Positions 37,243-59,894 of a stretch of DNA of 64,000 bases are shown here, piece after piece (positions within the stretch are counted from its first letter, which is position 1; each line of letters begins with the position of its first letter). The DNA is from an uncultured Bacilli bacterium (lineage in GTDB: Bacteria > Bacillota_I > Bacilli_A > RF39 > UBA660): positions 629 to 64,628 of the forward strand of contig CANRKG010000005.1 of NCBI GenBank assembly GCA_947631155.1, written 5' to 3'. Position numbers and translations under genes: made by a program. The notes below the pieces were generated by a model, which searched no databases, was not told the DNA's origin, and worked only from the letters and a program-made list of their open reading frames with translations.

Positions 37243-37254
37243 GGAGATTTTGTT

Positions 37255-39027: not shown

Positions 39028-39042
39028 TAAAGGAAATGTATT

Positions 39043-43143: not shown

Positions 43144-43587
43144 ATGAATAAAGCTATGTTAACAGTAGGAATTATTTTATTAAGTATAATTGCCTTAGGA
43201 GTTATAAATGTAATTCAAAATTATACAACAGGTCAAGAATTAGATTATTATTTGTTAAAAGAAACTACAGAAGCAGCTATGGAAGATGCAGTGGATTTAA
43301 GTTATTATACTGAACAATCAACTATTAGAATGGATAAAGAAAAATTCGCTGAAAGTTTTATTAAAAGATTTGCTAGAAGTGTTGATGATCGTAGAAGCTA
43401 TCAAATTAGCTTCTATGATGTCAATGAAATTCCACCAAAAGCCAGTGTGGAAGTAAAATCTGCTACTAGTTATACTTTTAAGTCATCTGCTGTTGATATT
43501 ACAACAAGATTAGATATGATTGTTGAAAATAATAATAAAAAGGATCCATTAGCTTATAAACTTGCCAGTACTATAAAAGCTAGTTAA
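43144..43587 (+). CDS. N-terminally anchored small protein, TadE/pseudopilin-like (tentative)
   Basis: Short charged leader plus hydrophobic helix (MNKAMLTVGIILLSIIALGVINV), then a beta-rich domain of about 120 aa. Located directly upstream of the CpaB-like gene. Confidence 0.45.
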   Translation: MNKAMLTVGIILLSIIALGVINVIQNYTTGQELDYYLLKETTEAAMEDAVDLSYYTEQSTIRMDKEKFAESFIKRFARSVDDRRSYQISFYDVNEIPPKASVEVKSATSYTFKSSAVDITTRLDMIVENNNKKDPLAYKLASTIKAS

Positions 43588-43607
43588 ATACATGAAAGGA
43601 GAATAAA

Positions 43608-44411
43608 ATGGGTAATTTAAGTGTTGGTATTAAAAAATTTCTTTCTAATAAAAATACAGTTACAATTTTAGGTGTTGTTGCTGCTGTATTTGTATTATAT
43701 TTTGGATATAATTCTAAAGTAAATAAAGCTATTACACCGATTAAAGTTCCTTACGCTAAAGAAACTATTTCTCCAGGAGAACAAATTACTGATGATATGA
43801 TAGGAGAAAAAAATGTTTCTAGTGAAACTGTAAATGATGGTAGTGCTTATATAAATAAAAGTGAAGTTTTAGATAAATATTCAAATGCAGATACAGTTAT
43901 TCCTAAAGGAAGCTTATTTTATAAAAGAGCAGTTGTAACTAAAGAGCAATTACCTGATAAGATAATATATGATTATCCTAATGGTTATGTATTATTTAAT
44001 TTATCAGTTGATATAAATTCAACATACGGTAATTCAATTTATCCAGGAAATTATATTGATATTTACTTAAAAGCAATGAATGCTGTTGAAGAAGGACAAG
44101 AAATAACAACAACTGATAAAATTATGGTTGGTAAATTATTAGAAAATGTTGAAGTATTAGCAGTTTTGGATAGTAATGGTAATAATGTATTTGCTAATCT
44201 TGATGAAAAAGGTTCTCCTAGTATGATTATATTTGCGGTTCCTTCAGAGTATTATATATTATTAAAAAAAGCTGGTTTCTTAAGAGCTTATGATTCTACA
44301 TTAATACCAGTACCAACTGATGAGAGTTTAAAAGATAATCCAGGAGAATTAAAATTAAGTAGTAATGATTTAAAAGACTTTATTAATAGAGTAACAGAAT
44401 GGACAGAATAG
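43608..44411 (+). CDS. CpaB/RcpC-like Flp pilus assembly protein (SAF domain)
   Basis: TM anchor, SAF-like ITPIKVPYAKETISPGEQITDDMI, then GYVLFNLSVDINSTYGNSIYPGNYIDIYL and LLENVEVLAVLD, matching the CpaB pattern. Confidence 0.65.
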   Translation: MGNLSVGIKKFLSNKNTVTILGVVAAVFVLYFGYNSKVNKAITPIKVPYAKETISPGEQITDDMIGEKNVSSETVNDGSAYINKSEVLDKYSNADTVIPKGSLFYKRAVVTKEQLPDKIIYDYPNGYVLFNLSVDINSTYGNSIYPGNYIDIYLKAMNAVEEGQEITTTDKIMVGKLLENVEVLAVLDSNGNNVFANLDEKGSPSMIIFAVPSEYYILLKKAGFLRAYDSTLIPVPTDESLKDNPGELKLSSNDLKDFINRVTEWTE

Positions 44412-44439
44412 AATAAAAAGGAAGGTAGTGGGTTATTAG

Positions 44440-45753
44440 ATGAATGAAAATGTTTTTGATAAACTTGACTTTGGCCCTTTAAAGCCACTTCTTGATAATG
44501 ACGATATCACAGATATTTCATTTTGTAATGGTGGTCAAATTTGGATTCGTTCGTTAACCCAAGGATCTCAGAGAGTTGAAATTCAAGGATTAACTCCTGA
44601 GTTTATGGAAAAGTTAGCATTTCAATGTTCTAACGTTATGGGAACAACCTTTAATAATGCCAAACCTTTCTTAGATGCTGAATCCGCAGAATTACGTTTC
44701 AATTTTGTTCATCAATCGATAGCTACTAATGGGATTGCATGTGTTATTCGTAAAACTCCAGCAAAAATTAGATTAGAGAAAAATAAACTTCTAAAAGAAG
44801 ATTACTTTACAGCAGATATACATGATATTTTAATTAAATGTGTTGAAGGTCATTGCAATATAATAGTGGCTGGGGAAACTGGTTCTGGTAAAACAGAGTT
44901 TGTAAAATATTTAGCAAGTCATACTAAACAGGATGAAAAGATTATTACAATTGAAGATACACTGGAGCTTCATTTGGATAGGATTTTTCCACAGCGTGAT
45001 ATTGTGGCTATGAAAACTAATAATGTAGCTAGTTACTCAGATGTTTTGGTAACTTGTATGAGACAAAATCCAAAATGGATATTGTTGTCAGAAGTCCGTA
45101 GTGCTGAAGCAGTTAGTGCGGTTCGTAACTCAATTTCTTCAGGACACAATATTTTATCAACAATACATGCTGATAAAGCTAGCGCTATTCCATATCGTTT
45201 ATATAGTTTGATGGAAACTGATTTAGATGTTAATCAATTTTTATCTACAATTTATAGATATATTCAATTAGGTGTTCATATTAAAGCTTATTATAGTAAA
45301 GAATATGGTAAATTTCATCGTGAAGTAGATGAAGTTGTTGAATTTTACGTTGATGATGATAATGTTCCACAATCTCATACAATATATAGAAAAGTATATG
45401 GTAAACCACCTATGCAAAATAAACCTAGTGCACATTTAATAGAGTATTTAGAAAATCAAAATATTGATATAAATGCAATAACAGCTAATATGAAAGAAGG
45501 CGAACAACCTCCTAATCAAGCTTCAGCAACAAATATACCACAAGCTAATAATGTTGCAGTAGCAACCGTTCAAGCTGTAGCAAAACCAGTTCAAGCAGTT
45601 ACAAATGTTAGTGCAGTGCCAGTACAATCTGTTAATGTAAATACTGTTCAAGTACCTCCTGCGCAACAACCTAATGTGGCCAATGTTGGACAAGCTGTAC
45701 CAAATAATTTGGCAAATATCATGCCACCACCAATAAATAAAACTAATCAATAA
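44440..45753 (+). CDS. TadA/CpaF-type secretion ATPase (T2SS-E/VirB11 superfamily) with low-complexity C-terminal tail
   Basis: Walker A GETGSGKTE, Asp box ITIEDTLEL, Walker B WILLSEVRSAEA and His box SGHNILSTIHA. It is followed by two T2SS-F-like genes. Confidence 0.85.
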   Translation: MNENVFDKLDFGPLKPLLDNDDITDISFCNGGQIWIRSLTQGSQRVEIQGLTPEFMEKLAFQCSNVMGTTFNNAKPFLDAESAELRFNFVHQSIATNGIACVIRKTPAKIRLEKNKLLKEDYFTADIHDILIKCVEGHCNIIVAGETGSGKTEFVKYLASHTKQDEKIITIEDTLELHLDRIFPQRDIVAMKTNNVASYSDVLVTCMRQNPKWILLSEVRSAEAVSAVRNSISSGHNILSTIHADKASAIPYRLYSLMETDLDVNQFLSTIYRYIQLGVHIKAYYSKEYGKFHREVDEVVEFYVDDDNVPQSHTIYRKVYGKPPMQNKPSAHLIEYLENQNIDINAITANMKEGEQPPNQASATNIPQANNVAVATVQAVAKPVQAVTNVSAVPVQSVNVNTVQVPPAQQPNVANVGQAVPNNLANIMPPPINKTNQ

Positions 45754-45768
45754 AAGGGGTGAAATTAC

Positions 45769-46662
45769 ATGGAACTAATTTTATTATTACTTATAGCAGT
45801 AGTAGTAATGTTATATAGAGGCTACGAAGGTAAAGACGTAGGTAAATTTATTACTAGTCATATTGGTACTGTGTATGAAAAATTTGCCCCTTTTTCTTTC
45901 AAAGTAGTTCGCGAAAAAACTAAGCAATTAGGAAAAGAATACACTGTTAGACAATATTCAATACAGATTGTATTATTTTCTACTTTTGCAGGAGTAATTA
46001 CATATTTATATTTTTATAATATTTTAATTAGTATTGTGTATATAGTAGCGGTAATTATGGTTATTCCATATTTATCATATTTAAGGTGTAAAAGAGTATA
46101 TAGTGAATTTCTTTTTGAACAAATACAAGTATATACATCTAATACTATTATGGAATTTGCAACAACACAATCATTTGTAAAAGCAATTGAAGGAGTTAGA
46201 GACTCAGGTGTTTTAGAAGATCCAGTAAAAACAGATGTAGAGCATATGATAGAATTAGCTTATCAAAATGGTAGTATTGAAGAATCCTTAAAGTACATGA
46301 GTAATTTATATCCATATTATATAGTTAAAAATATGCATCAATTGTTTTTACAAATCACTAAAGAAGGTGCGAGAAATTCTGCTGATAGTTTGGAGAACAT
46401 GCAACAAGATATAGATATGTTAGTTGAAAGCGTTTACCGTGATAGACAAGATAGAGCAACTTTCCATAAGCAGTTTTTACAATTTGGAATCATGCTATAT
46501 TTCATGCTTATGTTAACTCAATATCTATTAGGACGTGAATCATATCTATTATTACTTGAAAAGCCAGTTATCAAAATATTATTACATGGTGCTCTTATTG
46601 TTAATAGTATCTTTCTTTTAAAAGGTGAGAAATATTATAATGAGAATGTAGGTGCTGAATAA
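45769..46662 (+). CDS. TadB-like (T2SS-F domain) inner-membrane platform protein
   Basis: TM-cytoplasmic helical domain-TM layout. Position is directly after the ATPase. Confidence 0.6.
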   Translation: MELILLLLIAVVVMLYRGYEGKDVGKFITSHIGTVYEKFAPFSFKVVREKTKQLGKEYTVRQYSIQIVLFSTFAGVITYLYFYNILISIVYIVAVIMVIPYLSYLRCKRVYSEFLFEQIQVYTSNTIMEFATTQSFVKAIEGVRDSGVLEDPVKTDVEHMIELAYQNGSIEESLKYMSNLYPYYIVKNMHQLFLQITKEGARNSADSLENMQQDIDMLVESVYRDRQDRATFHKQFLQFGIMLYFMLMLTQYLLGRESYLLLLEKPVIKILLHGALIVNSIFLLKGEKYYNENVGAE

Positions 46663-47444
46663 TGGATATAATTTTAGTTTGTGCAATTTTAATATTTATA
46701 TTATTTTATAATAAAACTGTTGACGGCAAAAAATTCTTAATCGATAATGAAAAATATTTTCAAGCTTTAAGAGAAGAAGATTATGATTTCTTATTATATG
46801 CTAAATATGGTGAGGAAGCAGAACCAGATCTTTTATTCCGAAAAAGAATAACAACCGCTTTAATTTTTGGCTTTATCTTTTTAATAATTTTTTTAAATGA
46901 AATATCTTTAATTAATATTGTGTTAGCATTAATTGTTATGTTTGGGGTTTTTAAATTTCCTTATTTACAATTGAAACAATATTATAAAGCACATTTACAT
47001 GAAATTGACATTATGTTGCCATACTATTTAAAAAGTTTAGAAATTTTAATTCAACATTATACAGTTCCAGTAGCAATTGGTAAATCAATTGATGATGCAC
47101 CGGAAATATTTAAACCAGGTTTACGACAAATTGTTGAAAGAGTTAATTCAGGTGATTCAAGTATTGATCCATATATGGAATTTTCTAACACTTATCCTGT
47201 TAGAGATTCAATGCGAATGATGAGATTACTATATCGTTTAGGAATTGGATCCCAAGAGAATAAACAAGAACGTTTAATGATGTTTTCAAGAACAGTTTCT
47301 AATTTACAAAATAAAGCCCGTGAAATTAAATATAAAGAACGTTTAGGACATATGGAAAGTCAAACTATGATTATGTTAGTTGTAACAGGTGTTGCAGTTA
47401 TGTTGATTATTCTAGTGTCAATGATGGGAATGTTTAATGTATAA
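46662..47444 (+). CDS. TadC-like (T2SS-F domain) inner-membrane platform protein
   Basis: LPYYLKSLEILIQHYTVPVAIGKSIDDAPEIFKPGLRQIVERVNSGDS fits the GspF/TadC repeat pattern. 1-nt overlap with the upstream gene. Confidence 0.65.
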   Translation: MDIILVCAILIFILFYNKTVDGKKFLIDNEKYFQALREEDYDFLLYAKYGEEAEPDLLFRKRITTALIFGFIFLIIFLNEISLINIVLALIVMFGVFKFPYLQLKQYYKAHLHEIDIMLPYYLKSLEILIQHYTVPVAIGKSIDDAPEIFKPGLRQIVERVNSGDSSIDPYMEFSNTYPVRDSMRMMRLLYRLGIGSQENKQERLMMFSRTVSNLQNKAREIKYKERLGHMESQTMIMLVVTGVAVMLIILVSMMGMFNV

Positions 47445-47468
47445 AATTAATTAAATTAACAATATATA

Positions 47469-47496
47469 TTGTAAATTTAAAAAAATTTGGTATAAT
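47469..47496 (+). promoter_or_regulatory. Internal sigma-A-like promoter ahead of the Flp-like pilin ORF
   Basis: TTGTAA, 16-nt spacer, extended -10 TGGTATAAT. Confidence 0.55.
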
Positions 47497-47532
47497 AATT
47501 ATGTAAGATAAGAAAGGATGTGTATTTAATAT

Positions 47533-47700
47533 ATGAAAGCAGCTACAGGTGAATTAAACTTAACAGTTATTACTTTAATTGCTATTGCAGCCATTGTAGG
47601 ATTCTTTTGGTTTATGTGGAATGGTAACGGAGATAGTAGTATTCAAAATAGTATTAGTAAACAATGGGAAACGATAAGTGATGATAGTAACGTTAACTAA
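47533..47700 (+). CDS. Flp-like small pilin candidate (55 aa), absent from the supplied ORF track
   Basis: My translation: MKAATGELNLTVITLIAIAAIVGFFWFMWNGNGDSSIQNSISKQWETISDDSNVN. It has a short leader ending in Gly, a hydrophobic helix and a short polar tail. An AAAGGA RBS and its own promoter lie upstream. Confidence 0.6.
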   Translation: MKAATGELNLTVITLIAIAAIVGFFWFMWNGNGDSSIQNSISKQWETISDDSNVN

Positions 47701-47722
47701 AGCAGTTAGGATGTGATTTTCT

Positions 47723-48145
47723 ATGCGTGATGCCTTTGGTGGAATCGTTAATATTACATTTATAGTTGTCTTTATGGTTATTGTAAATGGTTATTTAGCA
47801 TTTGCTGCTAATTATAATAAGGCATTTAAATATAAGAATAAAATTATTAATATTATTGAGCAAAATGAAGGCTATGATGCTAATGCATTAAAAAAAATTG
47901 ATGAATATCGTAGATCGATTGGTTATAGTCTAGATACAAATATTGAAGTTAGCGGAGCTGAATGTGTAAAAGAGGAAGGCTTTTGTTATAAGGAAGAACT
48001 AGTAGATACTTCTGGGCAATTTAGTAAAAAATACTATACTATAACAACAGCTGTTAATATTGATATGCCTATTCTTAGAAATTTTTTACCTAAAGTAAAA
48101 TTATTTCAAGTAAGTGGAACAACAAAGACAATAACTAAACATTAA
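47723..48145 (+). CDS. TadE-like pseudopilin candidate
   Basis: The N-terminus MRDAFGGIVNITFIVVFMVIVNG shares an A-x-G-(x)-[LV]N[LI]T[VF]I pattern with the Flp-like ORF. The C-terminal YYTITTAVNIDMPILRNFLP resembles TadE. Confidence 0.5.
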   Translation: MRDAFGGIVNITFIVVFMVIVNGYLAFAANYNKAFKYKNKIINIIEQNEGYDANALKKIDEYRRSIGYSLDTNIEVSGAECVKEEGFCYKEELVDTSGQFSKKYYTITTAVNIDMPILRNFLPKVKLFQVSGTTKTITKH

Positions 48146-48160
48146 AAAAGAGGTGATACT

Positions 48161-49144
48161 TTGAATGTCATAGTTGCTAACCAAAGAAAAGACTCATTGT
48201 CAAGTTTGGATATAGAAGTAATAAAGAGCATAGTAGGTGAGTTTGAAGCCGAGGAATTAGTTGCTATGTTCAAAGACTTCTTTTTTGATAGAATGATTTT
48301 AGATGTTACAGCAATTAAAAACTATCAAGAAATTTCTAATATTCAAAAATTAGCTATGGAACTTGGTGAAAGTAAATTAATATTAGTACTTCCAGATGAT
48401 GTTTGTTCTTCGTCTAGTTATTTGTCTAATATTATTTCAATGGGAATTTATAATTTTACTAATAATGTTAATGCAATTAAACAATTAGTATTAAGACCTA
48501 ATAGTTATAAAGATGTAGCTAAAATACAACAATTAAATAATGCTTCTATTGAAATTAGTAATAGAGTTAATAAAGAAAATAAAATTATTGGTATTAGAAA
48601 TATTACAGATCATGCCGGAGCAACTACTTTAACTTATATGTTAAAAAAAGAATTAACTTATATTTATGGTGGTTCAGTCTATGCTATTGAAGTTAATAAA
48701 AGAGATTTTTCATATTTTAATGAAAAAAATATGTTTTCTGTTAATGAATCAGAGTTAGCTAAAAAAATCGCTGAACTTCAACATCCCGTTGCAGTTATTA
48801 TTGATTTAAATGACTGCAAGATGGATACGATGTGTGATGATATTTTATATTTACTTGAACCTAGTACTATTATGTTAAATAAATTAATTAATAAAAATAG
48901 AAGTGTTTTTGAAAACTTAAATAATAAAAAAATTTTATTAAATAAAAGTATGCTTACAAATAAAGAAGTCAGTGAATTAGAGTATGAAGCTAATACCAAA
49001 ATGTTCTATAATATACCACCACTAGATGAAAGAAAGAAAAATTCTGTTCTTCATGAATTATTATTTCGCTTAGGATTAATAGATAATACTGGAGCAAAGA
49101 AAGAAGAAGGAAATAAGATATTTGGTATATTTAGTAGAAAATAA
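48161..49144 (+). CDS. TadZ/CpaE-like protein: receiver-like N-domain plus ParA/MinD-like domain with degenerate Walker A
   Basis: IIGIRNITDHAGATTLTYMLKKEL sits where the ParA/MinD P-loop (G-GKT) would be, with the Lys absent. TTG start after AGAGGTGA. Confidence 0.5.
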   Translation: MNVIVANQRKDSLSSLDIEVIKSIVGEFEAEELVAMFKDFFFDRMILDVTAIKNYQEISNIQKLAMELGESKLILVLPDDVCSSSSYLSNIISMGIYNFTNNVNAIKQLVLRPNSYKDVAKIQQLNNASIEISNRVNKENKIIGIRNITDHAGATTLTYMLKKELTYIYGGSVYAIEVNKRDFSYFNEKNMFSVNESELAKKIAELQHPVAVIIDLNDCKMDTMCDDILYLLEPSTIMLNKLINKNRSVFENLNNKKILLNKSMLTNKEVSELEYEANTKMFYNIPPLDERKKNSVLHELLFRLGLIDNTGAKKEEGNKIFGIFSRK

Positions 49145-49165
49145 TGTAAACATTTATATATTTTA

Positions 49166-49195
49166 TTGACATTTGTAACTAAAATAGTTTACAAT
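49166..49195 (+). promoter_or_regulatory. Internal sigma-A-like promoter ahead of the VirB2-like genes
   Basis: TTGACA, 18-nt spacer, TACAAT. Confidence 0.5.
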
Positions 49196-49220
49196 TATGG
49201 TATAGAAAGAGAGGTTAATT

Positions 49221-49580
49221 ATGGAATTATTTCAAATAGGAAAAAAACAGGTAACATTTGAGTCAGATTCTTGTAAAGGCTTAGGTCCTATTGTCAGATT
49301 AATAAAAAAAGGCTTATTCCCTATAATTCAAATTGGTATTCCAATTTTACTAATTGTTATGGGTACTATAGATTTGGGAAAGGCAGTTATTTCTAGTGAT
49401 GAAAAAGAAATTAAAGGTGCACAAAGCAAATTAATTAAACGTTGTATTTATGCAATAGTAATATTCTTTATGGTTACATTAGTTACTATTTTGATGTCAC
49501 TAGTAGGAGTGTCTAAGGATGATAATGTTAGTGAAGATCAGGCTACAAGTTGGAGTACTTGTTGGGATAGTATAAAATAA
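49221..49580 (+). CDS. VirB2/TrbC-like two-TM hairpin protein (no cleavable signal peptide)
   Basis: IPILLIVMGTIDLGKAVISSDEKEIKGAQSKLIKRCIYAIVIFF. Cys residues lie before TM1 and after TM2. Paralogue of 49678 and of the N-terminus of 14379. Confidence 0.6.
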   Translation: MELFQIGKKQVTFESDSCKGLGPIVRLIKKGLFPIIQIGIPILLIVMGTIDLGKAVISSDEKEIKGAQSKLIKRCIYAIVIFFMVTLVTILMSLVGVSKDDNVSEDQATSWSTCWDSIK

Positions 49581-49594
49581 ACAAATATATGAAT

Positions 49595-49633
49595 AAAAAA
49601 GAAATATTTGAATTGCTATTTCTTTTTTTTTTT
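49595..49633 (+). terminator. Weak A/T-rich terminator or attenuator hairpin
   Basis: aaaaaagaaata/tatttctttttt stem, 10-nt loop, long T-run. Only one G-C pair in the stem. Confidence 0.4.
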
Positions 49634-49677
49634 GCTATACTTAAAGTGATACTTTGTAAAGTAAGGAAGTGCACACT

Positions 49678-50112
49678 ATGTTTTTAAAATGTATGAAGTT
49701 CTTTCTTTTGTTTTTTGCTGTATTTACAGTGTTTTTCACTGGTGATGTAAAAGCAAAAGAATTTAATATAAATAATTATGTACAAATTGCAGAAGAATGC
49801 GATAATTCAGATCCAAATTCATGTTGTTCTATATTAGGAAACGTTGATGATGAAGATTCAGTAGCCTGGTTAGTACAGAGGTTATTAAATTATTTAAAGG
49901 TATTAGGCCCATCAATTGCCATTATTTTGGGTAGTATTGATTTTGGTAAAGCAATTATTACATCAGATGAAGAAAATATGAAAAAAGCTCAAGTAAGATT
50001 CATTAAAAGAATTATTGCAGCTGTTTGTTTATTTTTCGTGCCATTATTTACACAAATATTATTGGGATTATTTGGTATTACTAGTAGCAATGCTAGTTGT
50101 GGATTAAGTTAA
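49678..50112 (+). CDS. VirB2/TrbC-like two-TM hairpin protein with Sec signal peptide
   Basis: Signal peptide MFLKCMKFFLLFFAVFTVFFTGDVKA|KE, then NSCCSILG...IAIILGSIDFGKAIITSDEENMKKAQVRFIKRIIAAVCLFF...ASCGLS. ATG 49678 lies 8 nt after AAGGAAG. Confidence 0.65.
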   Translation: MFLKCMKFFLLFFAVFTVFFTGDVKAKEFNINNYVQIAEECDNSDPNSCCSILGNVDDEDSVAWLVQRLLNYLKVLGPSIAIILGSIDFGKAIITSDEENMKKAQVRFIKRIIAAVCLFFVPLFTQILLGLFGITSSNASCGLS

Positions 50113-50133
50113 AGAAGAAAAGAGGTGAGGCTT

Positions 50134-52203
50134 ATGTTTCAGTTAGGGTTTTCTTTAGAAAGTGATACCCAGAAACCGCATTGGTGGATGGATGTAATAA
50201 GAGCGTTTTTTGCTTTGTTTGATAAAGTTGTATATTCACTAATAATAATTATGTATGAAATTCTTTTTAATCTAGCTGATGCAACTATTATTCAGTCAGA
50301 AACTATGGTTAATTTTTATAGTAGGGTTCAATTGATTATTGGTGTTTATATGATTTTTAAAGTATCAATTTCTCTTATGCAAGCTGTTATGAATCCTGAT
50401 CAATTAACTAATAAAGATACTGGGTTGGGTAAAATTATTACGAGAATTGTTACAATGTTAGCCCTATTTGCAGCTATTATTCCTCTAAATATTCCAAATG
50501 CTGAAGAGGGTAGTTATAATGCCTATTTAAATGAGAATGGTTTATTATTTGGTGTTTTATATTCTTTACAAGCTAGAATATTAGATCAAAATGTATTAGG
50601 GAAATTGATTTTAGGAACTAAAGGTGGAACTACTTCATCCACGGCAGAGAATGGAGATGAGTTGCTGGGTGGCGATAAGTCATCAAGTGCTAGATCTTTT
50701 GCAACATTTGTTTTAAAGACATTTGTTAGAATTAATATGAAAAAAAATGCTACTGAAGAAGGTCCAGCAGATGCTTCTAATTATATGTGTAGAAATTTAT
50801 CTTCTGATGAAATAAAAAAAGTTAATACATATAAAGATGAAGCTGGAACGACATATCCAATTCAAATATTAAATAACATAAATGAGGAATGTGATTCCAA
50901 TGGTAATAATTTAGACGATAAATATTTATTTGTTTATACGCCAATTATTTCGACTATTGTAGGAGTAGTATTTATATTTGTTTTATTCGGTTTTTGTATT
51001 GATATTGCGATTAGGGCTATAAAGTTAGCTGTGCTTAGGTTATTAGCCCCAATTCCAATTCTTAGTTATATTGATCCAAAGTCTTCTAAAGATGGTTCTT
51101 TTGCAGCTTGGGTTAAAACTCTAACCTCGACATATTTAGATTTATTTTTGAGATTACTGATTATCTTCTTTGTATTGTTTTTAGTTCAAGAAGTAATAGA
51201 GCACGGTCTAGAGATACCAATTGGTACTGGAATAGTAGGAATGATATCTACAATATTTGTCTTTATTGGAATGTTCTATTTTGCAAAAATGGCACCTAAG
51301 TTTCTTAAAGACGCTCTAGGCTTAAAGGGAAATCTTAGTAATTTTGGTTTATCAGCCATGTTAGCAGGAGCAGGAGCTTTTCGTACAGGTGGTAGTTTGT
51401 ATGATGCTTTTGATGCAGGACGAACTGCTACTGATGCTCAAATTGCAGCTTATAATCAAGGAAAACAAGCTCCTGGGGTAGGACAAAGTTATACTAGTGG
51501 GCGTGATTATATGGCACAACAGCTTACTGGTGATAAAAACATGACTTATAGGCAAATGCACCGTGGTGAAAAAGCACTGGATAGAATGGGTCTAACTCCT
51601 GGTCGAGTAGATGCTGAAAAAGAAAAAATGTATGACTATATGGATGAAGCTGCTGTTATGAATTCTATTAAAGATAAAGTTAATAATAATGGTTGGTCTT
51701 CTCTTACTGATGACGAAAAGGCTAAGGTAGAAAATGCATATCGTGAAGTACATGGAATAAATCCAAATGCAGAATTAACTGCAGAACAGATTAGTGATCT
51801 GCATGCGAGAGGAGCTACAGATGCATATAATGCTGCTCAAACTAAGGCTAAGAAACAAGAAAGTAAATATAAAACTATGGATGATGAATTAACTAAACGT
51901 GGTGGAAGTAGAAATTCTTATCGTGCTAAATATGGTGATTTACAAGAAAGGCATCCTGGTGAAAGAAATACTAGATTTAGTGATTTACTTACTCATGAGG
52001 GTCGAGATGCCATTCGAACAGGTGACTTTAGAGAAACAATGCGTAATGTAGCTGCAATGCCTAGAAATGGACGTTTAGCTAGTGTTGATAAAATGAATGA
52101 AGAAATAGATGCTGCTAGGAGAGCTGATGAAGCAATGACGGCAAGAGTTAATGCTGCTACAGCACCTTTAAGAGAAAGAGAAAGAGAACAAGATAATGAT
52201 TAA
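50134..52203 (+). CDS. VirB6/TrbL-like polytopic channel protein (Tn916 Orf15/TcpH-like architecture) with long charged C-terminal tail
   Basis: About 6-8 TM segments over about 390 aa, then a hydrophilic A/R/D/E-rich tail of about 300 aa. Position is between the VirB2-like and VirB3/VirB4-like genes. Confidence 0.6.
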   Translation: MFQLGFSLESDTQKPHWWMDVIRAFFALFDKVVYSLIIIMYEILFNLADATIIQSETMVNFYSRVQLIIGVYMIFKVSISLMQAVMNPDQLTNKDTGLGKIITRIVTMLALFAAIIPLNIPNAEEGSYNAYLNENGLLFGVLYSLQARILDQNVLGKLILGTKGGTTSSTAENGDELLGGDKSSSARSFATFVLKTFVRINMKKNATEEGPADASNYMCRNLSSDEIKKVNTYKDEAGTTYPIQILNNINEECDSNGNNLDDKYLFVYTPIISTIVGVVFIFVLFGFCIDIAIRAIKLAVLRLLAPIPILSYIDPKSSKDGSFAAWVKTLTSTYLDLFLRLLIIFFVLFLVQEVIEHGLEIPIGTGIVGMISTIFVFIGMFYFAKMAPKFLKDALGLKGNLSNFGLSAMLAGAGAFRTGGSLYDAFDAGRTATDAQIAAYNQGKQAPGVGQSYTSGRDYMAQQLTGDKNMTYRQMHRGEKALDRMGLTPGRVDAEKEKMYDYMDEAAVMNSIKDKVNNNGWSSLTDDEKAKVENAYREVHGINPNAELTAEQISDLHARGATDAYNAAQTKAKKQESKYKTMDDELTKRGGSRNSYRAKYGDLQERHPGERNTRFSDLLTHEGRDAIRTGDFRETMRNVAAMPRNGRLASVDKMNEEIDAARRADEAMTARVNAATAPLREREREQDND

Positions 52204-52219: not shown

Positions 52220-52582
52220 ATGAATTATTTAATTCCTGCTAATACAAAAAAAGGTCAATTAATAATGGGAATATTTAGACCTTTTGATTTAATACTATTT
52301 GGTACAGGTATACTTATTACAGTCATATTTATGGCGTTATTACCTTTAACTTCTACAGCTATAACAATAATTATATTATTACCAGCAATGATTACAGGTT
52401 TTTTGGTAGTGCCTGTACCGTATTATCACAATATTTTAAATGTTATCCTAGAATTAATTGAATTTTTTACTAATCAAAGGAATTATGAATGGAAAGGTTG
52501 GTGTATTAGAATTGGCGAAAACAGTAGAAAAAGGAAGAAGATCAACAGAGGATTGGCTACCAGTACGAGCAATCCAAAATAA
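52220..52582 (+). CDS. PrgI/TcpE/VirB3-like small two-TM protein
   Basis: IPANTKKGQLIMGIFRPFDLILFG followed by two TM segments resembles the Tn916 Orf17/PrgI family. Directly precedes VirB4. The last ~100 nt overlap the next ORF. Confidence 0.6.
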   Translation: MNYLIPANTKKGQLIMGIFRPFDLILFGTGILITVIFMALLPLTSTAITIIILLPAMITGFLVVPVPYYHNILNVILELIEFFTNQRNYEWKGWCIRIGENSRKRKKINRGLATSTSNPK

Positions 52583-53066
52583 TATGATATTTACTTATGG
52601 AAATTATAAGGTCACAGGGGTGAAGATTACTCCTCGTAATATCTTTATTTTGGATGGTTCAACTCAAAATAATATCTTAATAAGTTTGAAAAATTTTTAT
52701 AATATGATTGATTTTGAATTTTGGTTAGTTGTAGCAGATAGACCTGTTGATTTATCAATTCATATGTCTCAATTGCAACTTCAACTAAATGACACCCAAG
52801 AACCAGCAATTAGAAAATTAATTTTACAAGATTTAGATAAGGATCAAATGTTTATTAGTAATAATGTAGTTGATACAGAGTATTATTTTCTATTTAAAGA
52901 AAAAAATGAGGATATTATTCAGAAAAAAATTAGATTATTAATTAATGGATTAGCTACTTGTGGGTTAAATGCAGCACAAGTTAGTAATGAAGACTTAAGA
53001 GTTGTTTTAGACAATTTCTTGAATGGGGGAAATACGACAGAATTTGGAACGGTGATGCCAGTATGA
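52485..53066 (+). CDS. VirB4-like ATPase, N-terminal domain fragment (separate ORF)
   Basis: RRSTEDWLPVRAIQNNMIFTYGNYKVTGVKITPRNIFIL matches the conserved N-terminus of Gram-positive VirB4 (Tn916 Orf16/TcpF type). The start is uncertain (ATG 52485 or TTG 52458). Confidence 0.6.
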   Translation: MNGKVGVLELAKTVEKGRRSTEDWLPVRAIQNNMIFTYGNYKVTGVKITPRNIFILDGSTQNNILISLKNFYNMIDFEFWLVVADRPVDLSIHMSQLQLQLNDTQEPAIRKLILQDLDKDQMFISNNVVDTEYYFLFKEKNEDIIQKKIRLLINGLATCGLNAAQVSNEDLRVVLDNFLNGGNTTEFGTVMPV

Positions 53067-54853
53067 GTGTAAGTTTAAGAGGTCAATTAGCCCCAAAGGG
53101 TTTAAGTTTTAATGCTAGTGATTTTTTTATCAGTGATAAGTATGCTACTATTTTATCAGTAGTATCATATCCTCGATATATTCAACCAGGTTATTTATCT
53201 ACTTTGACAAATATGTCTGGTATTAAAATTGTAGTTAAACATATTCCTGTTGAATTTTCGATGATATCTAAGATGTTAAATAAGCAAGTTGCTGATTTAA
53301 AAGATAGATATGGTAAAGAAAGAGATCAAACTGCTCGTGAAAGAATTAGACAAGACTATGAAAGCTTAGAATATTTTATTTCGATGTTAGCTGCTAGTCA
53401 AGCTCGTATCTTTGATTTTCAAATGCACATTATGATAACAGCAGATACTAAAGAAGATTTGGAAATGAAAAAGGTTAATGTTAAAAACTATTTAGATGCT
53501 ATGGAACTTAAAGCGATATCTTTACGTTTTGAGCAAGAAAAAGTTTTAAAATCTATTTTACCTATTTTCCCATCACAAGATATAGAAGAGAGAATAGGAA
53601 CACCAATTCCTTCTGTTACTATTGCAGCAATGTATCCTTTTATTTTTGATAGTATTAAGGATCCTGGTCTTTCAACATTACTTGGAGTAGATTTTTCAGG
53701 TGGAGTTATTCTATTTAATCAGTTTTTATATAAAATAAAGAAAGAGAATAATCGTAATAATGCTAATATGATTATTTTAGGTACTTCTGGTTCTGGTAAG
53801 TCAACTGCGGCAAAAGTAATGCTTAGAACTCATATAAGAAATAGATGCCAAATTGTGGCAATAGATCCTGAAAATGAGTATGAAGAAATTACTAGAACAT
53901 TTGGTGGAGATAAAGTAGATATTGGTAAAGGTGGAGAATTTGGTCTTATTAATCCTTTAGATGTAGTAATTGATGCTGATGACGAGGAAATAAAACAGGG
54001 ATTAGGTTATACTGTTTTAACTAGGACTTTACAATTTTTAAAAGCTTTTATGAAGTATTACGATCCATCTATTCCCGAAGATGTTTTAACAATGTTTAGT
54101 GAGATTGTTCAAGATACTTATAAACGTTTTGGAATTGATTTTGATACAGATTTTTCAGGTTTTACAGCAGAAGATTATCCCACATTTTCAGATGTTTATG
54201 CTACAATAAGAGGTAGACTTATGTCTATGACAGAACAAACTAATGAACGTGATATTATGGAACGTTTAGAATTAAAAGTAAGACCTATTATTAAAGAATT
54301 AAAATTTTATTTTGATGGGCATACTACTATTAATGGTAATAGTGACTTTATGGTATTTAATATTAAGGAATTAATGAATAGTGATTCTAATATTAAAAAT
54401 GCGTTATTCTTTAATGTCTTTAAATATGCATGGGGTCTATGTTTAGATCCTCGAGTTGATACAATTCTAATGGTAGATGAAGCTCATGTATTGTTAGGAG
54501 AACAAAATACTTTTGGAGCGGATTTCTTAGCTCAAGTACAAAGACGTGCTCGTAAATATAATACTGGTACAATTATTATTACTCAGCAACCTAGTGACTT
54601 TTCTGCTCCAGCTGTAATTACTCAAGGTAAAGCAATTTTTGATAATGCTTCCTATTATTTAGTAATGGGCTTAAAAAAGCAAGCAGTGGAAGATTTAAGT
54701 TTATTAATAGATTTAAATGAAAGTGAAAAAGAAAGTATAAAGCGTTATTCTCAAGGTGAGGCATTATTTGTCTGTGGAAATAGACGAATGAGAATAAATA
54801 TTTCTGTTACAAAACAAGAGTTAGATTTATTTGGTAGTGGTGGCGGCCTATAA
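53063..54853 (+). CDS. VirB4-like conjugation/T4SS ATPase, central and C-terminal ATPase part
   Basis: Walker A GTSGSGKST and Walker B ILMVDEAHVLL. The region before the P-loop is typical of VirB4. ATGA overlap with the N-terminal fragment. Confidence 0.85.
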   Translation: MSVSLRGQLAPKGLSFNASDFFISDKYATILSVVSYPRYIQPGYLSTLTNMSGIKIVVKHIPVEFSMISKMLNKQVADLKDRYGKERDQTARERIRQDYESLEYFISMLAASQARIFDFQMHIMITADTKEDLEMKKVNVKNYLDAMELKAISLRFEQEKVLKSILPIFPSQDIEERIGTPIPSVTIAAMYPFIFDSIKDPGLSTLLGVDFSGGVILFNQFLYKIKKENNRNNANMIILGTSGSGKSTAAKVMLRTHIRNRCQIVAIDPENEYEEITRTFGGDKVDIGKGGEFGLINPLDVVIDADDEEIKQGLGYTVLTRTLQFLKAFMKYYDPSIPEDVLTMFSEIVQDTYKRFGIDFDTDFSGFTAEDYPTFSDVYATIRGRLMSMTEQTNERDIMERLELKVRPIIKELKFYFDGHTTINGNSDFMVFNIKELMNSDSNIKNALFFNVFKYAWGLCLDPRVDTILMVDEAHVLLGEQNTFGADFLAQVQRRARKYNTGTIIITQQPSDFSAPAVITQGKAIFDNASYYLVMGLKKQAVEDLSLLIDLNESEKESIKRYSQGEALFVCGNRRMRINISVTKQELDLFGSGGGL

Positions 54854-54884: not shown

Positions 54885-56894
54885 ATGCCAATTTTTAGTA
54901 ACGAAGATAAAGATGCTAAGAAAAAAGGTCTTTCTAATGAAAATATAGATAAAGATAAAAAAAATATCTATCAAGCAGAAAAAAATGACCATAAAGCAGA
55001 AAAAAATGATTCAAAAAACAAAAATGATAAAAATAATGAATCAAATAAAAAAGCAGCAAAAACTGCTGCTAAAGGAGCTGCTAATGCTGCATTTGGACCA
55101 ATGGGTGGTAAAGCCGTTGATGCTATTTCTAAAACCAAAGCAGGAGATAAACTTTTAAATAAAGGTGGAGAATTACTAGGAAAAATTCCTGGTATATCTA
55201 AAGCTACTAAAAAATTAGATGATAGCGGAGCTTTAGATGCAGCTGATAAAGGAATGTCTGCAATGGGTGGAGGAGCAACTCCTGGAGTTGGAGCTACTAA
55301 TAATGCTGCTCAACAACAAGCTTCAACCAATGATGCGCCTGGTTTTTCAGGCTTTGGAAAAGGAAATTCTAAAAATAAAGGAGGTTTAGGTAAACCTTCT
55401 TCTTTGGATGGAGATAATTTAGAAAACCCTGATCAAATTGATAATAATGATAAACAAGGTGAAGGAGATTTTTCTGCTAATCTTTCAGGAACAGGATTTT
55501 TGCCTGGGGGAAAAAAAACATTACTCATTATTGGAGTAGTTTGTTTTATATTTTTATTTATGAGTGGTGGTATTCTTACTTCGATTGGTTCGGCAGATAA
55601 TAATGATGCTAAAAATGATATTGGAAATCCTGATAGGAAAGGTGCTAAAGGTACTAAATATGAAAGCCAAATAATAGATAATCCTAATAGTTCAGTAAAT
55701 GCAGGAGGAATTTGTACTTATGATATTAAAGGATCGACCAATGGTGTAAGTGTAACTAATTTTAATGAACAAGTTACAGATATAAAAGTTAGATTGATGC
55801 ATTCTAGTTTCTGTGATGGTACCGATAATGTTCCTATTGAAGGAGAGTCTTTAATTGATTTTGAAACTTATATTTTAGGAGTAGTTTATGCTGAAGTTGG
55901 TGGAGGTATGAATGAAGCTGAAGCTAAAACTCAAGCTATTGCGGCTAGAAGTTTTATTTTAGATCGTGCTATTAGAGGCGTCAATAAAGCTAATGGTGTA
56001 AAATTGGAAAATGAAGATGGACAGTGGGTATTACAAGTTCGAAATTGTGTTGCTGATCAAGTTTTTTGTAATCCAGATCAAGGTTGTTCTAAAAGAGGTG
56101 CTTCAGATAATCAATATCAAGATGTGTATTCAGGTATAAATAACATAATAACTTATAAGCCACCATTATCTCAAAATGCAAAATCTCGTCAATGGGTTGC
56201 AGAGACCACCGGGCAACTTCTTGTTAATAATAGTGGTTATATTGTAGGAACTAATTATGCATCTTCTAGGCAAAAAGAATGGAGAACTTGGGGTGCAATT
56301 TTAGATTATAAACAAGTCTTGTTGCAGTCTTATGGCTCTAATAAAGATATATATACAGCAAATTGCTCAGGAGGAGCAACTTCTACTGGTGATTATACTA
56401 CTTGGAAACAATATGGGGCTCCGTGGTCATCTATAACTTTAGGTAATAGTAGTGCTACTATCAATAATGCTGGTTGTTTAGCTACATCTATATCAATGTT
56501 AATTGCTAAATCTGGTGTAGCTACCTCTGTAGAAGGTGAATTTAATCCAGGTACTTTTGTTCAACAATTAAATAAGAGTGGGGGATTTGATGGAAGAGGT
56601 AATTTACAGTGGAATGTTGTTAGTAGTGCCGCTCCTAATTTTAAATATCAAGGAAAAATTAATGTTGCAAATGATTCTAGAAAAAATAAATTAGCAAGTA
56701 TTCAATCATTATTGAATTCAGGATATTATGTGGTTGCTGAAGTAAAAGGTAATACAGGACAACACTGGGTAGCTATTGATTCTGTTAATGGTGATACTGT
56801 TAATATGTTTGATCCTGCTAGTACTTCAACTAATATGTGGCAGCAATATAATTGGAAAAACACTAGTCGTTTAGCTTATTTTAAAGTAGTATAA
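54885..56894 (+). CDS. T4SS-associated cell-wall hydrolase: low-complexity N-terminus, TM, SpoIID-like domain, papain-fold Cys peptidase (C39/CHAP-like) domain
   Basis: YILGVVYAEVGGGMNEAEAKTQAIAARSFILDR (SpoIID/LytB pattern). C-terminal NNAGCLATSISML (Cys), GQHWVAIDSV (His) and MFDPAS (Asp). Confidence 0.7.
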   Translation: MPIFSNEDKDAKKKGLSNENIDKDKKNIYQAEKNDHKAEKNDSKNKNDKNNESNKKAAKTAAKGAANAAFGPMGGKAVDAISKTKAGDKLLNKGGELLGKIPGISKATKKLDDSGALDAADKGMSAMGGGATPGVGATNNAAQQQASTNDAPGFSGFGKGNSKNKGGLGKPSSLDGDNLENPDQIDNNDKQGEGDFSANLSGTGFLPGGKKTLLIIGVVCFIFLFMSGGILTSIGSADNNDAKNDIGNPDRKGAKGTKYESQIIDNPNSSVNAGGICTYDIKGSTNGVSVTNFNEQVTDIKVRLMHSSFCDGTDNVPIEGESLIDFETYILGVVYAEVGGGMNEAEAKTQAIAARSFILDRAIRGVNKANGVKLENEDGQWVLQVRNCVADQVFCNPDQGCSKRGASDNQYQDVYSGINNIITYKPPLSQNAKSRQWVAETTGQLLVNNSGYIVGTNYASSRQKEWRTWGAILDYKQVLLQSYGSNKDIYTANCSGGATSTGDYTTWKQYGAPWSSITLGNSSATINNAGCLATSISMLIAKSGVATSVEGEFNPGTFVQQLNKSGGFDGRGNLQWNVVSSAAPNFKYQGKINVANDSRKNKLASIQSLLNSGYYVVAEVKGNTGQHWVAIDSVNGDTVNMFDPASTSTNMWQQYNWKNTSRLAYFKVV

Positions 56895-57731: not shown

Positions 57732-59894
57732 ATGAAACTTAAATTTACAGCTGACTCAGAAGATTTAACAATATTTATAATATTTGCTATTTTCTTATTA
57801 TATATAATATCAATAGGTGTAGTTAATTTAGCCTCCTTAGCAGAAAATGGTCATTTATCTGGATTAAATCCTTTTCCTGCTTTTTCAAAAGAATATATTA
57901 CATCTACTTTAGTATTTTACTTTATATCATTATTAGGATTAATTATTAGTGTTAGTTCTAGATTCTTTGAGATGGAAAAGGGAATTGGACTTAGTACTCA
58001 AAAGAAGAATAAAGGATATAGTCGTTGGGCTAAAGAAAAAGAGATGAAAGAAGAGTTATCTATGTTAACTCCACTTCAAAAAAAATCATCTGTTGCTGGT
58101 GTGCCACTTATCTTAAAAGAAAATGAAGCTTGGGTTGATAATGGTGAATATCATACTCTAGTAATTGGTGCTACTGGTAGTGGTAAAACACAAACAGTTA
58201 TTAAACCAACAGTAAAATTTTTAGCCAAGAAGGGTGAAAGTATTATTATTACTGACCCTAAAGGAGAAATTTATGAAGAAACAGCTGAAATGTTACGTGC
58301 TAGAGGATATCAGATTTTACTTCTAAACTTCCGAGATCCTCAAAATGGTAATGCTTGGAATCCTATGTCATTGCCTTATAAAGTTTACAAGAGTGGAAAA
58401 CAAGATAAAGCCATTGAGTTACTAGATGACTTAGCTTTAAATATCTTATATGATGAATCTAATGCCAATGCAGATCCGTTTTGGGAAAAAACTTCAGCCG
58501 ATTATTTTTCAGGACTTGCTTTAGGTTTATTTGAAGATGCCAAAGAAGAAGAAATAAATATAAATAGTATAAACTTGATGAGTACAGTGGGTGAAGATAA
58601 ATTTGGTGGTTCTACATATATTAAAGAATATTTTGGATTTAAAGATCCAGGAAGTGCCGCTGCTATAAATGCTTTTGGTACTATTACAGCACCAAGCGAA
58701 ACTAAAGGTTCAATTTTATCTGTATTTAAACAAAAAGTTAAATTATTTGCTTCACGTGAAAATTTAAGTGAGATGTTATCTTATAGTGATATTGATTTAG
58801 AATCAATTGGAAAAAGAAAAACAGCAGTGTTTATTGTTATTCAAGATGAAAAGAAAACTTACCACTCATTAGTTACTATTTTATTAAAACAAATTTATGA
58901 AACATTGATTGATGTTGCTCAAAAATGTGGTGGTAAACTTCCTATTCGTACTAATTTCTTATTAGATGAGTTTGCTAATATGCCACCATTAAAAGATGTA
59001 ACAACAATGATTACGGCAGCTCGTTCTCGTCAAATTAGATTTACTATGATTGTACAAAATTATGCGCAATTGAATAAAGTTTATGGAAAAGAAAATGCTG
59101 AAACTATCAAAGGAAATTGTGGAAATATTATTTACTTAATTAGTACAGAGCTAGCAGCTTTAGAAGAAATCTCTAAATTATGTGGTGAGGTTAAGAGTAA
59201 AAAAGATGATAAAACAGCTTCAACACCACTTGTCACTGTTTCTGATTTACAACGAATGGGACAATTTGAAACAATTATTTTACGTTTAAGAAAACAACCT
59301 TTCAAAACAAAAATGACACCAGATTTTAAAATAGATTGGGGTTATAAATATCCTAAAGCTACTTATCCTCATAGAGAAAAGAAAGATATTCATATGTTTG
59401 ATATTAAAGAATTTGTTAAAGGGGAAAAGAAGAAAAAGTTATTAGAAATGATGAATTCAACAGATGAACAACCTGGATTTGCACAAATGCCTCCAAATCC
59501 TTTTGGTATGCCGATGATGGATGGTAATAGAAGAGTACCAAATCCTAATAATCCATTCGCAGCTAATCAAGGCTTTAATCCATTTTCTTCTGATCCGTTT
59601 GGTAAACCAGCTGAACCAAGACAACAACTTGTTAATGATGATGATTCTAGTAATGAAGAGTTTAATGTCGATGAGTTAGTAAAGAAAATAGATGCCAAGA
59701 TTGCTGAATTAGAAAAAGAAGAACAACGAAATAAAGAATTGGAAGAGAAGAAAAAGGCGGAAAGTAAAACTGAAATTATTGGAGATAAGGAATCTGAAAT
59801 TGTTCATAAAGATAAAGTTATTGTTCAAAATTTAGATTTAGAAGATGATGATGACGATGATGATGAATTTTTTGATGATTTCTTTGATAATTAA
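57732..59894 (+). CDS. VirD4/TraG-type type IV coupling protein with P/N-rich and poly-Asp C-terminal tail
   Basis: Two N-terminal TM segments, Walker A GATGSGKTQ, Walker B NFLLDEFANM and RFTMIVQNYAQL motif. Confidence 0.85.
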   Translation: MKLKFTADSEDLTIFIIFAIFLLYIISIGVVNLASLAENGHLSGLNPFPAFSKEYITSTLVFYFISLLGLIISVSSRFFEMEKGIGLSTQKKNKGYSRWAKEKEMKEELSMLTPLQKKSSVAGVPLILKENEAWVDNGEYHTLVIGATGSGKTQTVIKPTVKFLAKKGESIIITDPKGEIYEETAEMLRARGYQILLLNFRDPQNGNAWNPMSLPYKVYKSGKQDKAIELLDDLALNILYDESNANADPFWEKTSADYFSGLALGLFEDAKEEEININSINLMSTVGEDKFGGSTYIKEYFGFKDPGSAAAINAFGTITAPSETKGSILSVFKQKVKLFASRENLSEMLSYSDIDLESIGKRKTAVFIVIQDEKKTYHSLVTILLKQIYETLIDVAQKCGGKLPIRTNFLLDEFANMPPLKDVTTMITAARSRQIRFTMIVQNYAQLNKVYGKENAETIKGNCGNIIYLISTELAALEEISKLCGEVKSKKDDKTASTPLVTVSDLQRMGQFETIILRLRKQPFKTKMTPDFKIDWGYKYPKATYPHREKKDIHMFDIKEFVKGEKKKKLLEMMNSTDEQPGFAQMPPNPFGMPMMDGNRRVPNPNNPFAANQGFNPFSSDPFGKPAEPRQQLVNDDDSSNEEFNVDELVKKIDAKIAELEKEEQRNKELEEKKKAESKTEIIGDKESEIVHKDKVIVQNLDLEDDDDDDDEFFDDFFDN

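Follow-up and report, generated by a model that had tools for sequence, protein, structure and literature searches.

Two paralogous hairpin proteins as candidate VirB2-like subunits of a chromosomal type IV secretion locus in uncultured gut Bacilli

Results

ORF1 and ORF2 are paralogous hairpin proteins encoded directly upstream of a VirB6-like gene

We analyzed a 64,000-nucleotide stretch of DNA from an uncultured Bacilli bacterium (GenBank assembly GCA_947631155.1, contig CANRKG010000005.1, positions 629 to 64,628; hereafter the window), in which two tandem genes, ORF1 and ORF2 (coordinates in Table 1), encode small membrane proteins of two hydrophobic helices next to the genes of a type IV secretion system (T4SS). 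A first-pass annotation, made from the letters alone, had described both proteins as VirB2-like hairpins with a common core of about 60 residues. The peptides that it quoted are present in the translations, and BLASTP aligned ORF1 with ORF2 at 43% identity over 61 residues (E 6e-17). Consistent with this, comparison of the ORF1 and ORF2 family alignments by hhalign scored 99.1% (E 5e-19), and the 86 aligned columns begin with the Cys that precedes helix 1. On these alignments, the paralogy of ORF1 and ORF2 is far above chance.

ORF1 consists of an acidic N-tail, Cys18, helix 1, a basic loop, helix 2 and a W-x-x-C114-W tail. In ORF2, residues 1–26 form the signal peptide (...VKA/KE). We placed the start of ORF2 at ATG 49678, where the homologues also begin and which lies 8 nt downstream of an AAGGAAG ribosome-binding site, and for these reasons dropped the GTG at 49669 given in the list of open reading frames. 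AlphaFold2 monomer models built from the family alignments consist of two long antiparallel helices, spanning residues 22–58 and 61–95 in ORF1 and 62–95 and 98–132 in ORF2, with pLDDT values of ∼80–88 in the helices and 71–72 overall. ORF2 ends (50112) 12 nt before the VirB6-like gene (50125), and the pair as a whole lies 0–0.9 kb upstream of that gene.

Profile matches link the pair to the T4SS_pilin family

Searches against Pfam linked the pair to PF18895 (T4SS_pilin), one of the two Pfam models for calling VirB2-like pilins in Patescibacteria (PMC12102498). ORF2 of the window aligned with positions 3–71 of the 71 model positions at 24.8 bits (E 2.4e-5; gathering cutoff 26.6), and ORF1 scored 12.8 bits (E 0.13). 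The model was matched by 25 of 27 ORF2 relatives (best E 7.6e-9), one long ORF2 orthologue scored 28.9 bits against the same cutoff, and precomputed PF18895 annotation is present on most relatives. ORF1 is tied to the family because of the hhalign match to the ORF2 family described above. Overall, the link to PF18895, as drawn from these profile matches, is solid at the level of the family. The family that the first-pass annotation had proposed to search, PF04956 (TrbC/VirB2), gave no match, and the link thus runs through PF18895 alone.

Charge and a signal peptide favor a topology with both termini outside, and a Cys pair is conserved

The first-pass annotation had read both proteins as hairpins of a monoderm T4SS with N- and C-termini outside, and this reading is supported by the PF18895 family, the T4SS context, the charge bias and the signal peptide. 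As it had also pointed out, the signal peptide is present in ORF2 alone and not in ORF1; the Ala at −1 is invariant across ORF2 relatives, so the N-side of ORF2 would lie outside and, with two membrane helices following, its tail would lie outside too. In 113 parsed relatives of ORF1, the 14-residue N-tail is acidic (K+R 0.35, D+E 2.1), the 21-residue loop is basic (K+R 6.0) and the C-tail is again acidic (K+R 1.4). This charge distribution favors the same N-out/C-out layout for ORF1 as for ORF2. In relatives of both proteins, the loop is the most conserved part.

A Cys before helix 1 and another near the C terminus had been reported for both proteins, and their conservation is pronounced. C18 and C114 are invariant among ORF1 relatives, conservation of C49 and C141 among ORF2 relatives is 90% or more, and the N-side Cys occurs together with exactly one tail Cys in 138 of 150 representatives (<50% identical to one another). 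The relative P0061 has neither Cys, and an extra N-side Cys is found in P0055, in P0058 and in most of the eight representatives without the tail Cys. The cysteines thus covary as expected of a disulfide pair, which would be able to tie the outer ends of the hairpin together.

ORF1 is flanked by conserved expression signals

The first-pass annotation had further noted a promoter-like site before ORF1 and a weak hairpin with a T-run after it, and had read the two as consistent with over-expression of one subunit. An equivalent promoter-like site, with at least 10 of 12 matches and at the same distance from the ATG, was detected in 57 of 79 related loci compared with 17 of 240 random windows, and the site is followed by a GAAGGAG ribosome-binding site. 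The hairpin of the window is indeed weak (fold z −2.28 for the 91-nt spacer), and a consensus scan missed it. Of 73 related loci, 68 have a hairpin with a T-run downstream of ORF1, compared with 9 of 240 random windows, and the stem sequences differ between clades. With both signals conserved across species, ORF1 thus forms a unit with its own promoter and, probably, partial termination, which would be expected if this subunit is needed in excess and which supports the reading of over-expression.

The ORF2 position is variable, and a third hairpin paralogue lies elsewhere in the window

The protein at the ORF2 position has at most 200 aa in 33 of 73 loci, as in the window, and at least 330 aa in 35 of them, with lengths up to 519 aa (582 aa in another assembly). 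The long form consists of a signal peptide, a large ectodomain of 215–391 aa and a C-terminal hairpin; no Pfam matches were obtained for the large ectodomains. Many of the 150 representatives are likewise 250–580 aa long with the hairpin again at the C terminus. Pairwise comparison gave a median identity of 22% over the ectodomain; the hairpins of those proteins reached 50%, and ORF1 at those loci 59%. Judging from these alignments, ORF2 of the window is a short version of a subunit that in many relatives is extended by a large variable ectodomain. Four loci (L049, L051, L054, and L056) have, instead of the two-gene layout, an array with three or four genes of the hairpin module, and some of these genes encode 360–470 aa.

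A third hairpin paralogue, ORF1-like and devoid of a signal peptide, is encoded 35 kb upstream of the pair amid housekeeping genes (PF18895 E 0.0018; PF00877 E 3.7e-11 for its NlpC/P60 domain). The NlpC/P60 domain is on the C-side of the hairpin in this protein and on the N-side in one of the representatives, and both arrangements fit termini located outside. We rejected the fusion as a general topology marker because the relatives of the third paralogue are stand-alone proteins of 112–172 aa; the fusion is therefore lineage-specific and lends weak support to the topology. In one related locus (L086, 4972–7219), the gene for a stand-alone third paralogue of 123 aa lies between a Peptidase_C39_2 gene on its upstream side and a separate NlpC/P60 gene on its downstream side.

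The hairpins without a signal peptide, namely the ORF1 family and the third paralogue, share an N-terminal motif, M-x-x-(L/I)-(F/I)-Q-I-(G/A/L) (49221–49244 and 14379–14400 in the window). It occupies alignment columns 1–8 and is missing in some relatives. The motif may act as a short leader or packing element, or may be a signal for the C39-like peptidase encoded beside the third paralogue of L086.

The pair is embedded in a supercluster of T4SS and Tad-like genes

The genes around ORF1 and ORF2 form a single co-directional supercluster at ∼35.7–61.2 kb, which runs from surface proteins through a Tad-like block, a gene for a 327-aa protein and the hairpin pair to the T4SS genes (Table 1). The VirB6-like gene is kept beside ORF2 in 68 of 80 related loci. 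VirB4 is encoded as three genes (window 52220–54853), which specify a VirB3-like protein, a TrsD-like N-terminal domain and the ATPase, the last two genes overlapping by ATGA; this split resembles the pGO1-type and Patescibacteria arrangement. TrsD has been described in PMC12102498, and in other assemblies the TrsD-like gene encodes 193 aa with a weak TraC-like match. We considered frameshift damage as the cause of the split and rejected it, because the split is found in all loci and fits the VirB3/TrsD/VirB4 arrangement (PMC12102498). The SpoIID-domain protein is a likely wall hydrolase of the machine, and a 264-aa protein is encoded between its gene and that of the VirD4-type coupling protein.

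Table 1. Features of the window that bear on the hairpin pair and its neighborhood
Feature	Coordinates	Strand	Description and evidence
Third hairpin paralogue	14379..15218	+	ORF1-like, no signal peptide; fused to C-terminal NlpC/P60; local HMM E 1e-13
Tad-like block	43144..48145	+	DUF5411, CpaB/RcpC-like, TadA/VirB11-like ATPase, two membrane proteins, Flp-like ORF, 140-aa protein
Flp-like ORF	47533-47700	+	55 aa (MKAATGELNLTVITLIAIAAIVGFF...); between the two membrane proteins and the 140-aa protein; gene-called in other assemblies
327-aa protein	48161..49144	+	Directly upstream of ORF1; present in 78/80 loci
Promoter-like site	49166..49195	+	Sigma-70 type, TTGACA-18-TACAAT; 11/12 matches, best in 47400-50300
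ORF1	49221..49580	+	119 aa; hairpin protein without signal peptide
Stem-loop into T-run	49595..49633	+	AU-rich, 12-bp stem; proposed leaky intrinsic terminator 3' of ORF1
ORF2	49678..50112	+	144 aa from ATG; Sec signal peptide, short Cys-containing ectodomain, hairpin, C-terminal CGLS
VirB6-like protein (TrbL_4)	50125..52203	+	Polytopic membrane protein, 692 aa; PF19597 E 6.9e-8
VirB3-like protein	52220..52582	+	Small membrane protein; weak TcpE match; VirB4_plasma model positions 2-97
TrsD-like protein	52458..53066	+	VirB4 N-terminal-domain-like, separate gene; VirB4_plasma positions 98-277, E 3.2e-15
VirB4 ATPase	53063..54853	+	VirB4_plasma E 3.9e-106; CD1110 family E 6.3e-51
SpoIID-domain protein	54885..56894	+	PF08486 E 8.3e-8
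VirD4-type coupling protein	57732..59894	+	CD1115 family; PF02534 E 8.2e-57; NF045973 308.8 bits, cutoff 250

The Tad-like block is syntenic in most of the 80 loci. Its 55-aa ORF looks like a Flp/type IV-type prepilin, and with CpaB- and TadA-like genes upstream it agrees with the claim of the first-pass annotation that the cluster holds a Flp-like candidate in addition to the VirB2-like one. The 327-aa protein matched no Pfam, NCBIfam or PHROG family. At the head of the supercluster (35680–43132, + strand) lie genes for surface proteins, one of them containing an Ig-like domain, for a sortase and for an 1114-aa protein that evolves fast (its median identity across loci is 26%); the surface proteins are possibly sortase-anchored adhesins that work with the machine.

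The window is chromosomal, and the housekeeping proteins encoded in it include BipA, DnaE, a pseudouridine synthase, a rhomboid protein, YceG, trigger factor and Lon. No relaxase family was matched among the window ORFs scanned, which included all of 35680–61219 and several ORFs without any family match, and no integrase family was detected. A gene resembling a PD-(D/E)XK nuclease family transposase (32790–33659, − strand) lies ∼2 kb upstream of the supercluster, and there are few other minus-strand genes.

The locus is widespread in uncultured gut Bacilli

We found 1072 ORF1 relatives among clusters at 90% identity, and species-representative genomes carry ORF1 relatives at 216 places. When 1.84 billion representatives were searched with a profile, the search returned 9819 clusters at E ≤1e-3 and 5565 at E ≤1e-10. 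The genomes that bear ORF1 are labelled uncultured Bacilli, Tenericutes, Mycoplasmatota, Candidatus Faecimonas (filed by NCBI under Bacilli incertae sedis), Ca. Onthousia, Ca. Scybalousia and Clostridium sp. CAG:710, and we take them to belong to the GTDB order RF39. In the 80 loci of uncultured gut Bacilli that we fetched, gene order is nearly constant, and the median identity to the window is 60% for ORF1, 47% for ORF2, 40% for VirB6, 86% for VirB4 and 81% for the TadA-like ATPase. Overall, as gene content and order indicate, the locus encodes a chromosomal type IV secretion machine that is joined to a Tad-like pilus block and has been conserved among uncultured gut Bacilli related to Mollicutes. 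A megablast search of plasmids with the locus gave no match.

Two departures from the common order concern ORF1. In L044, L053 and L064, the Tad-like block and ORF1 are kept, and cell-division or other housekeeping genes (downstream of 8350) stand in place of ORF2, VirB6 and VirB4. In L027, L052, L058, L062 and L070, insertions of 3–7 kb between the 327-aa gene and ORF1 part the Tad-like block from ORF1 and the T4SS genes; those read (L027, L052, and L058) encode large polytopic membrane proteins and a FAD-type oxidoreductase and look like envelope-polysaccharide genes.

The pair shares features with VirB2-like subunits of other single-membrane systems

Up to late 2025, T4SSs of Gram-positive bacteria were viewed as being without VirB2, those of Patescibacteria excepted (PMC12857230, PMC12102498, PMC10633639). 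The Patescibacteria carry essential arrays of VirB2-like pilin genes, such as SEML1_0006–0019 of Southlakia epibionticum (PMC10633639, PMC12102498). As in the window, these are tandem divergent paralogues of the PF18895 family (a link made through the Pfam model only) near virB4 and virB6, in a monoderm host with a reduced genome and a chromosomal T4SS without a recognisable relaxase; a TrsD-like gene again lies next to VirB4, and type IV-pilus-type genes occur in the same genome. In contrast to the two genes found here in a member of the Bacillota, the Patescibacteria arrays comprise 2–11 pilin genes. Further, in the present locus one paralogue has no signal peptide and VirD4 is encoded within the locus, and the conserved Cys pair and ectodomain fusions seen here have not been described for Patescibacteria.

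According to a preprint of 20 December 2025, PrgF of the Enterococcus faecalis plasmid pCF10 is a VirB2-like hairpin without a signal peptide that is encoded beside virB6 and is essential for conjugation, and of 174 representative Gram-positive plasmids, pXO1 and pXO2 among them, 95% encode small outside-in-outside hairpins near virB6 (bioRxiv 10.64898/2025.12.18.695078). PrgF thereby shows that a hairpin can be N-out although it has no signal peptide, and labelling indicated that its loop becomes exposed (bioRxiv 10.64898/2025.12.18.695078). Proteins of the PrgF type are small, have the order outside-membrane-inside-membrane-outside with or without a signal peptide, carry a charged loop with an S-(D/N)-(D/E) turn, are encoded near virB6 and are proposed to stack on the VirB6 pentamer. 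The predicted layout of ORF1 and ORF2 (119 and 144 aa, in their position relative to the VirB6-like gene) conforms to this description. However, PrgF has no detectable sequence similarity to either protein, has a weak Pfam Maff2 match and no PF18895 match, and is shorter (75 aa) and devoid of the Cys pair. Moreover, its VirB6 counterpart PrgH is of the TrbL type compared with TrbL_4 here, and PrgF is encoded on a plasmid with a relaxase and its function has been tested.

The closest plasmid VirB4 proteins, at 28.7% identity, are those of Bacillus thuringiensis plasmids of 56–262 kb, which we take to be of the pAW63/pXO2 type. On pBMB68 (NZ_CP010581.1), the gene order is MobP3 relaxase, VirD4 (CD1115), a 126-aa hairpin, TrbL_4, PrgI, a 227-aa protein, VirB4 and NlpC/P60, followed further on by DUF5411, SAF/CpaB, ATPases (one of the T2SS/T4P type) and two membrane proteins. 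The 126-aa "hypothetical protein" directly before TrbL_4 (19686–20066; 6649–7029 in L087) is a hairpin with a signal peptide and a weak PF18895 match (E 0.023), and its loop, MSDNDP, resembles the loop MSNDDP of PrgF. Thus, pBMB68 has in common with the window a signal-peptide hairpin, TrbL_4, PrgI/VirB3, the 227-aa TrsD-like protein, VirB4, a wall hydrolase and VirD4 of the CD1115 family as well as a Tad-like gene set (DUF5411, CpaB/SAF, ATPase, and two membrane proteins). It differs in having a MobP3 relaxase, the reverse order of blocks (T4SS first and Tad-like after) and a single hairpin gene, whose product has no Cys pair and matches PF18895 weakly. Because of this shared gene set, the supercluster of the window looks like a rearranged chromosomal relative of that conjugation module, in which no relaxase was found.

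With canonical VirB2/TrbC proteins (the Agrobacterium T-pilin, PDB 8cue/8exh, and TrbC of RP4), the pair shares two predicted hydrophobic helices, a basic loop, a signal peptide in the case of ORF2, a gene position heading the channel genes and a closure of the two ends, which is by peptide-bond cyclisation in the canonical proteins and would be by a putative disulfide here. Cyclisation chemistry is absent from the present proteins, which also have longer helices, a 21-residue loop that is longer than that of VirB2, a monoderm host and no PF04956 match.

Discussion

The best explanation for these findings is that ORF1 and ORF2 are paralogous T4SS_pilin (PF18895) subunits, a single-membrane counterpart of VirB2. 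We consider it probable that a VirB2-like tube is built on the VirB6-like platform from subunits with disulfide-tied outer ends, with ORF1 as its abundant core component and ORF2 as an accessory one that bears an ectodomain. According to this model, ORF1 would be made in excess, and both proteins would insert so that the two termini lie outside while the basic loop (∼6 Lys/Arg) faces the cytoplasm. The outer ends would be closed by a disulfide that joins the Cys preceding helix 1 to the one following helix 2; as a non-covalent-backbone analogue, this closure would correspond to the head-to-tail cyclisation of the T-pilin and of TrbC. ORF1 would be lifted from the membrane onto the VirB6-like platform, with VirB4 giving the energy, as proposed for VirB2 and PrgF, and would stack into a tube through the wall, its lumen lined by the conserved SSDE-K-x-AQ-x-LIKR loop. 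A few ORF2-type subunits would enter, at the tip or as decoration, and display the ectodomain, which is short here and 215–391 aa in many relatives.

Several observations weigh against this interpretation. ORF2 of the window falls slightly below the PF18895 cutoff, and ORF1 reaches E 0.13. Neither protein matched PF04956 at E up to 1, and profile searches of PDB sequences did not match any solved pilin. Comparisons by hhalign with VirB2 of PDB 8cue (probability 0.2%), PrgF (0.07%) and the pBMB68 hairpin (not significant) were negative, each being a weak test against a single-sequence target. Foldseek comparison of both AlphaFold2 models with the PDB, a tool that the first-pass annotation had proposed for other comparisons, returned generic hairpins alone (such as ATP synthase subunit c and HtrII; E >0.7), and cannot discriminate this hairpin fold from others. 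The term VirB2-like therefore rests on family name, architecture and context, with no demonstrable homology to canonical VirB2. Further, large ectodomain fusions are unusual for a major pilin, ORF1 occurs without adjacent T4SS genes in three related genomes, and disulfide formation in an anaerobic Firmicute is assumed. Since the locus lies on the chromosome and the window ORFs scanned included no relaxase, a conjugative role, as implied by the label "conjugative" of the first-pass annotation, is unproven. All of the evidence for a pilin role is computational.

A different role for the hairpin, which we regard as possible but doubtful, is that of a membrane-resident docking module at VirB6/VirB4 that tethers extracellular cargo (adhesin-like ectodomains and wall hydrolases), with ORF1 as its cargo-less structural partner. 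The frequency of long proteins with a C-terminal hairpin, both at the ORF2 position (35 of 73 loci) and among the 150 representatives, is in line with such a role, as are the NlpC/P60 domains fused to the hairpin module and the failure to match pilins structurally, and the strong conservation of the loop fits a fixed cytoplasmic partner. However, the private promoter and terminator of ORF1 point to a large stoichiometric excess over the machine, and a simple anchor would not need a Cys staple of its outer ends. The family link to proteins called pilins and the precedent of PrgF, with loop exposure detected by labelling (bioRxiv 10.64898/2025.12.18.695078), likewise argue for a pilin.

We consider it quite improbable that ORF1 works in the neighboring Tad-like pilus machine and not in the T4SS. 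Tad systems have their own Flp-type pilin, for which the 55-aa ORF at 47533–47700 is a candidate, and the paralogue of ORF1 matches the T4SS pilin family. The location of ORF1 after Tad-like genes in nearly all loci, and its retention there in the three loci that have no following ORF2, VirB6 and VirB4, would agree with a Tad role, but in the five loci with insertions between the blocks it is found on the side of ORF2 and the T4SS genes, and on pBMB68 the hairpin gene is located inside the T4SS block, 12 kb from the Tad-like block. Least probable is that unrelated small membrane proteins (holins, bacteriocin-immunity proteins, or toxic peptides) lie beside secretion genes by chance: two-helix hairpins and their Foldseek matches are generic and one paralogue is fused to a lysin-type domain, but this explanation is already largely refuted by the fixed place of the pair in a conserved secretion locus of ∼70 genomes, by a housekeeping chromosomal context without prophage genes and by searches with ORF1 and ORF2 that gave no PHROG family match and, using tblastn against 50,697 phage records and 72,556 plasmids, no hit in either collection. 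A match to a non-T4SS family such as holins, together with loss of the cysteines, is one of the outcomes that the first-pass annotation had held to speak against its own reading; no PHROG match was obtained, and the cysteines are kept in most representatives as described above.

On the preferred interpretation of ORF1 and ORF2 as pilin subunits, we tentatively raise a broader scenario, unlikely as it stands, in which gut Bacilli with reduced genomes domesticated a conjugation module of the pXO2/pAW63 type into a chromosomal, relaxase-less contact machine like the essential one of Patescibacteria. ORF1 would then be a disulfide-closed, "pseudo-cyclic" pilin, and the hypervariable ectodomains anchored by pilins of the ORF2 type would serve a tip or adhesin function analogous to that of VirB5. 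If this is true, the ectodomains would be the long-sought tip or adhesin of monoderm T4SS pili, and a cell-to-cell dependent lifestyle of the lineage would be indicated.

T4SSs of Gram-positive bacteria were thought to be pilin-less until 2023–2025, when the work on Patescibacteria and the PrgF preprint changed this view. The remark of the first-pass annotation that pilin-like proteins are poorly characterised in monoderm T4SSs is therefore only partly valid, having been overtaken in part by these studies (PMC10633639, PMC12102498, bioRxiv 10.64898/2025.12.18.695078). Because VirB2-like pilins of Gram-positive conjugative plasmids had already been shown in the December 2025 preprint, the present locus extends a recently recognised group of pilin-like subunits and founds no new kind. 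It would represent a third setting for monoderm pilins, namely a chromosomal machine in a widespread uncultured gut lineage, in which a conserved extracellular Cys pair could replace pilin cyclisation. The two genes suggest a division of labor between a conserved, separately transcribed subunit without a signal peptide and a Sec-dependent subunit with a hypervariable ectodomain. Finally, PF18895, TrbL_4 and the TrsD-like gene may serve as a sequence-family bridge between the Patescibacteria and Bacillus plasmid systems.

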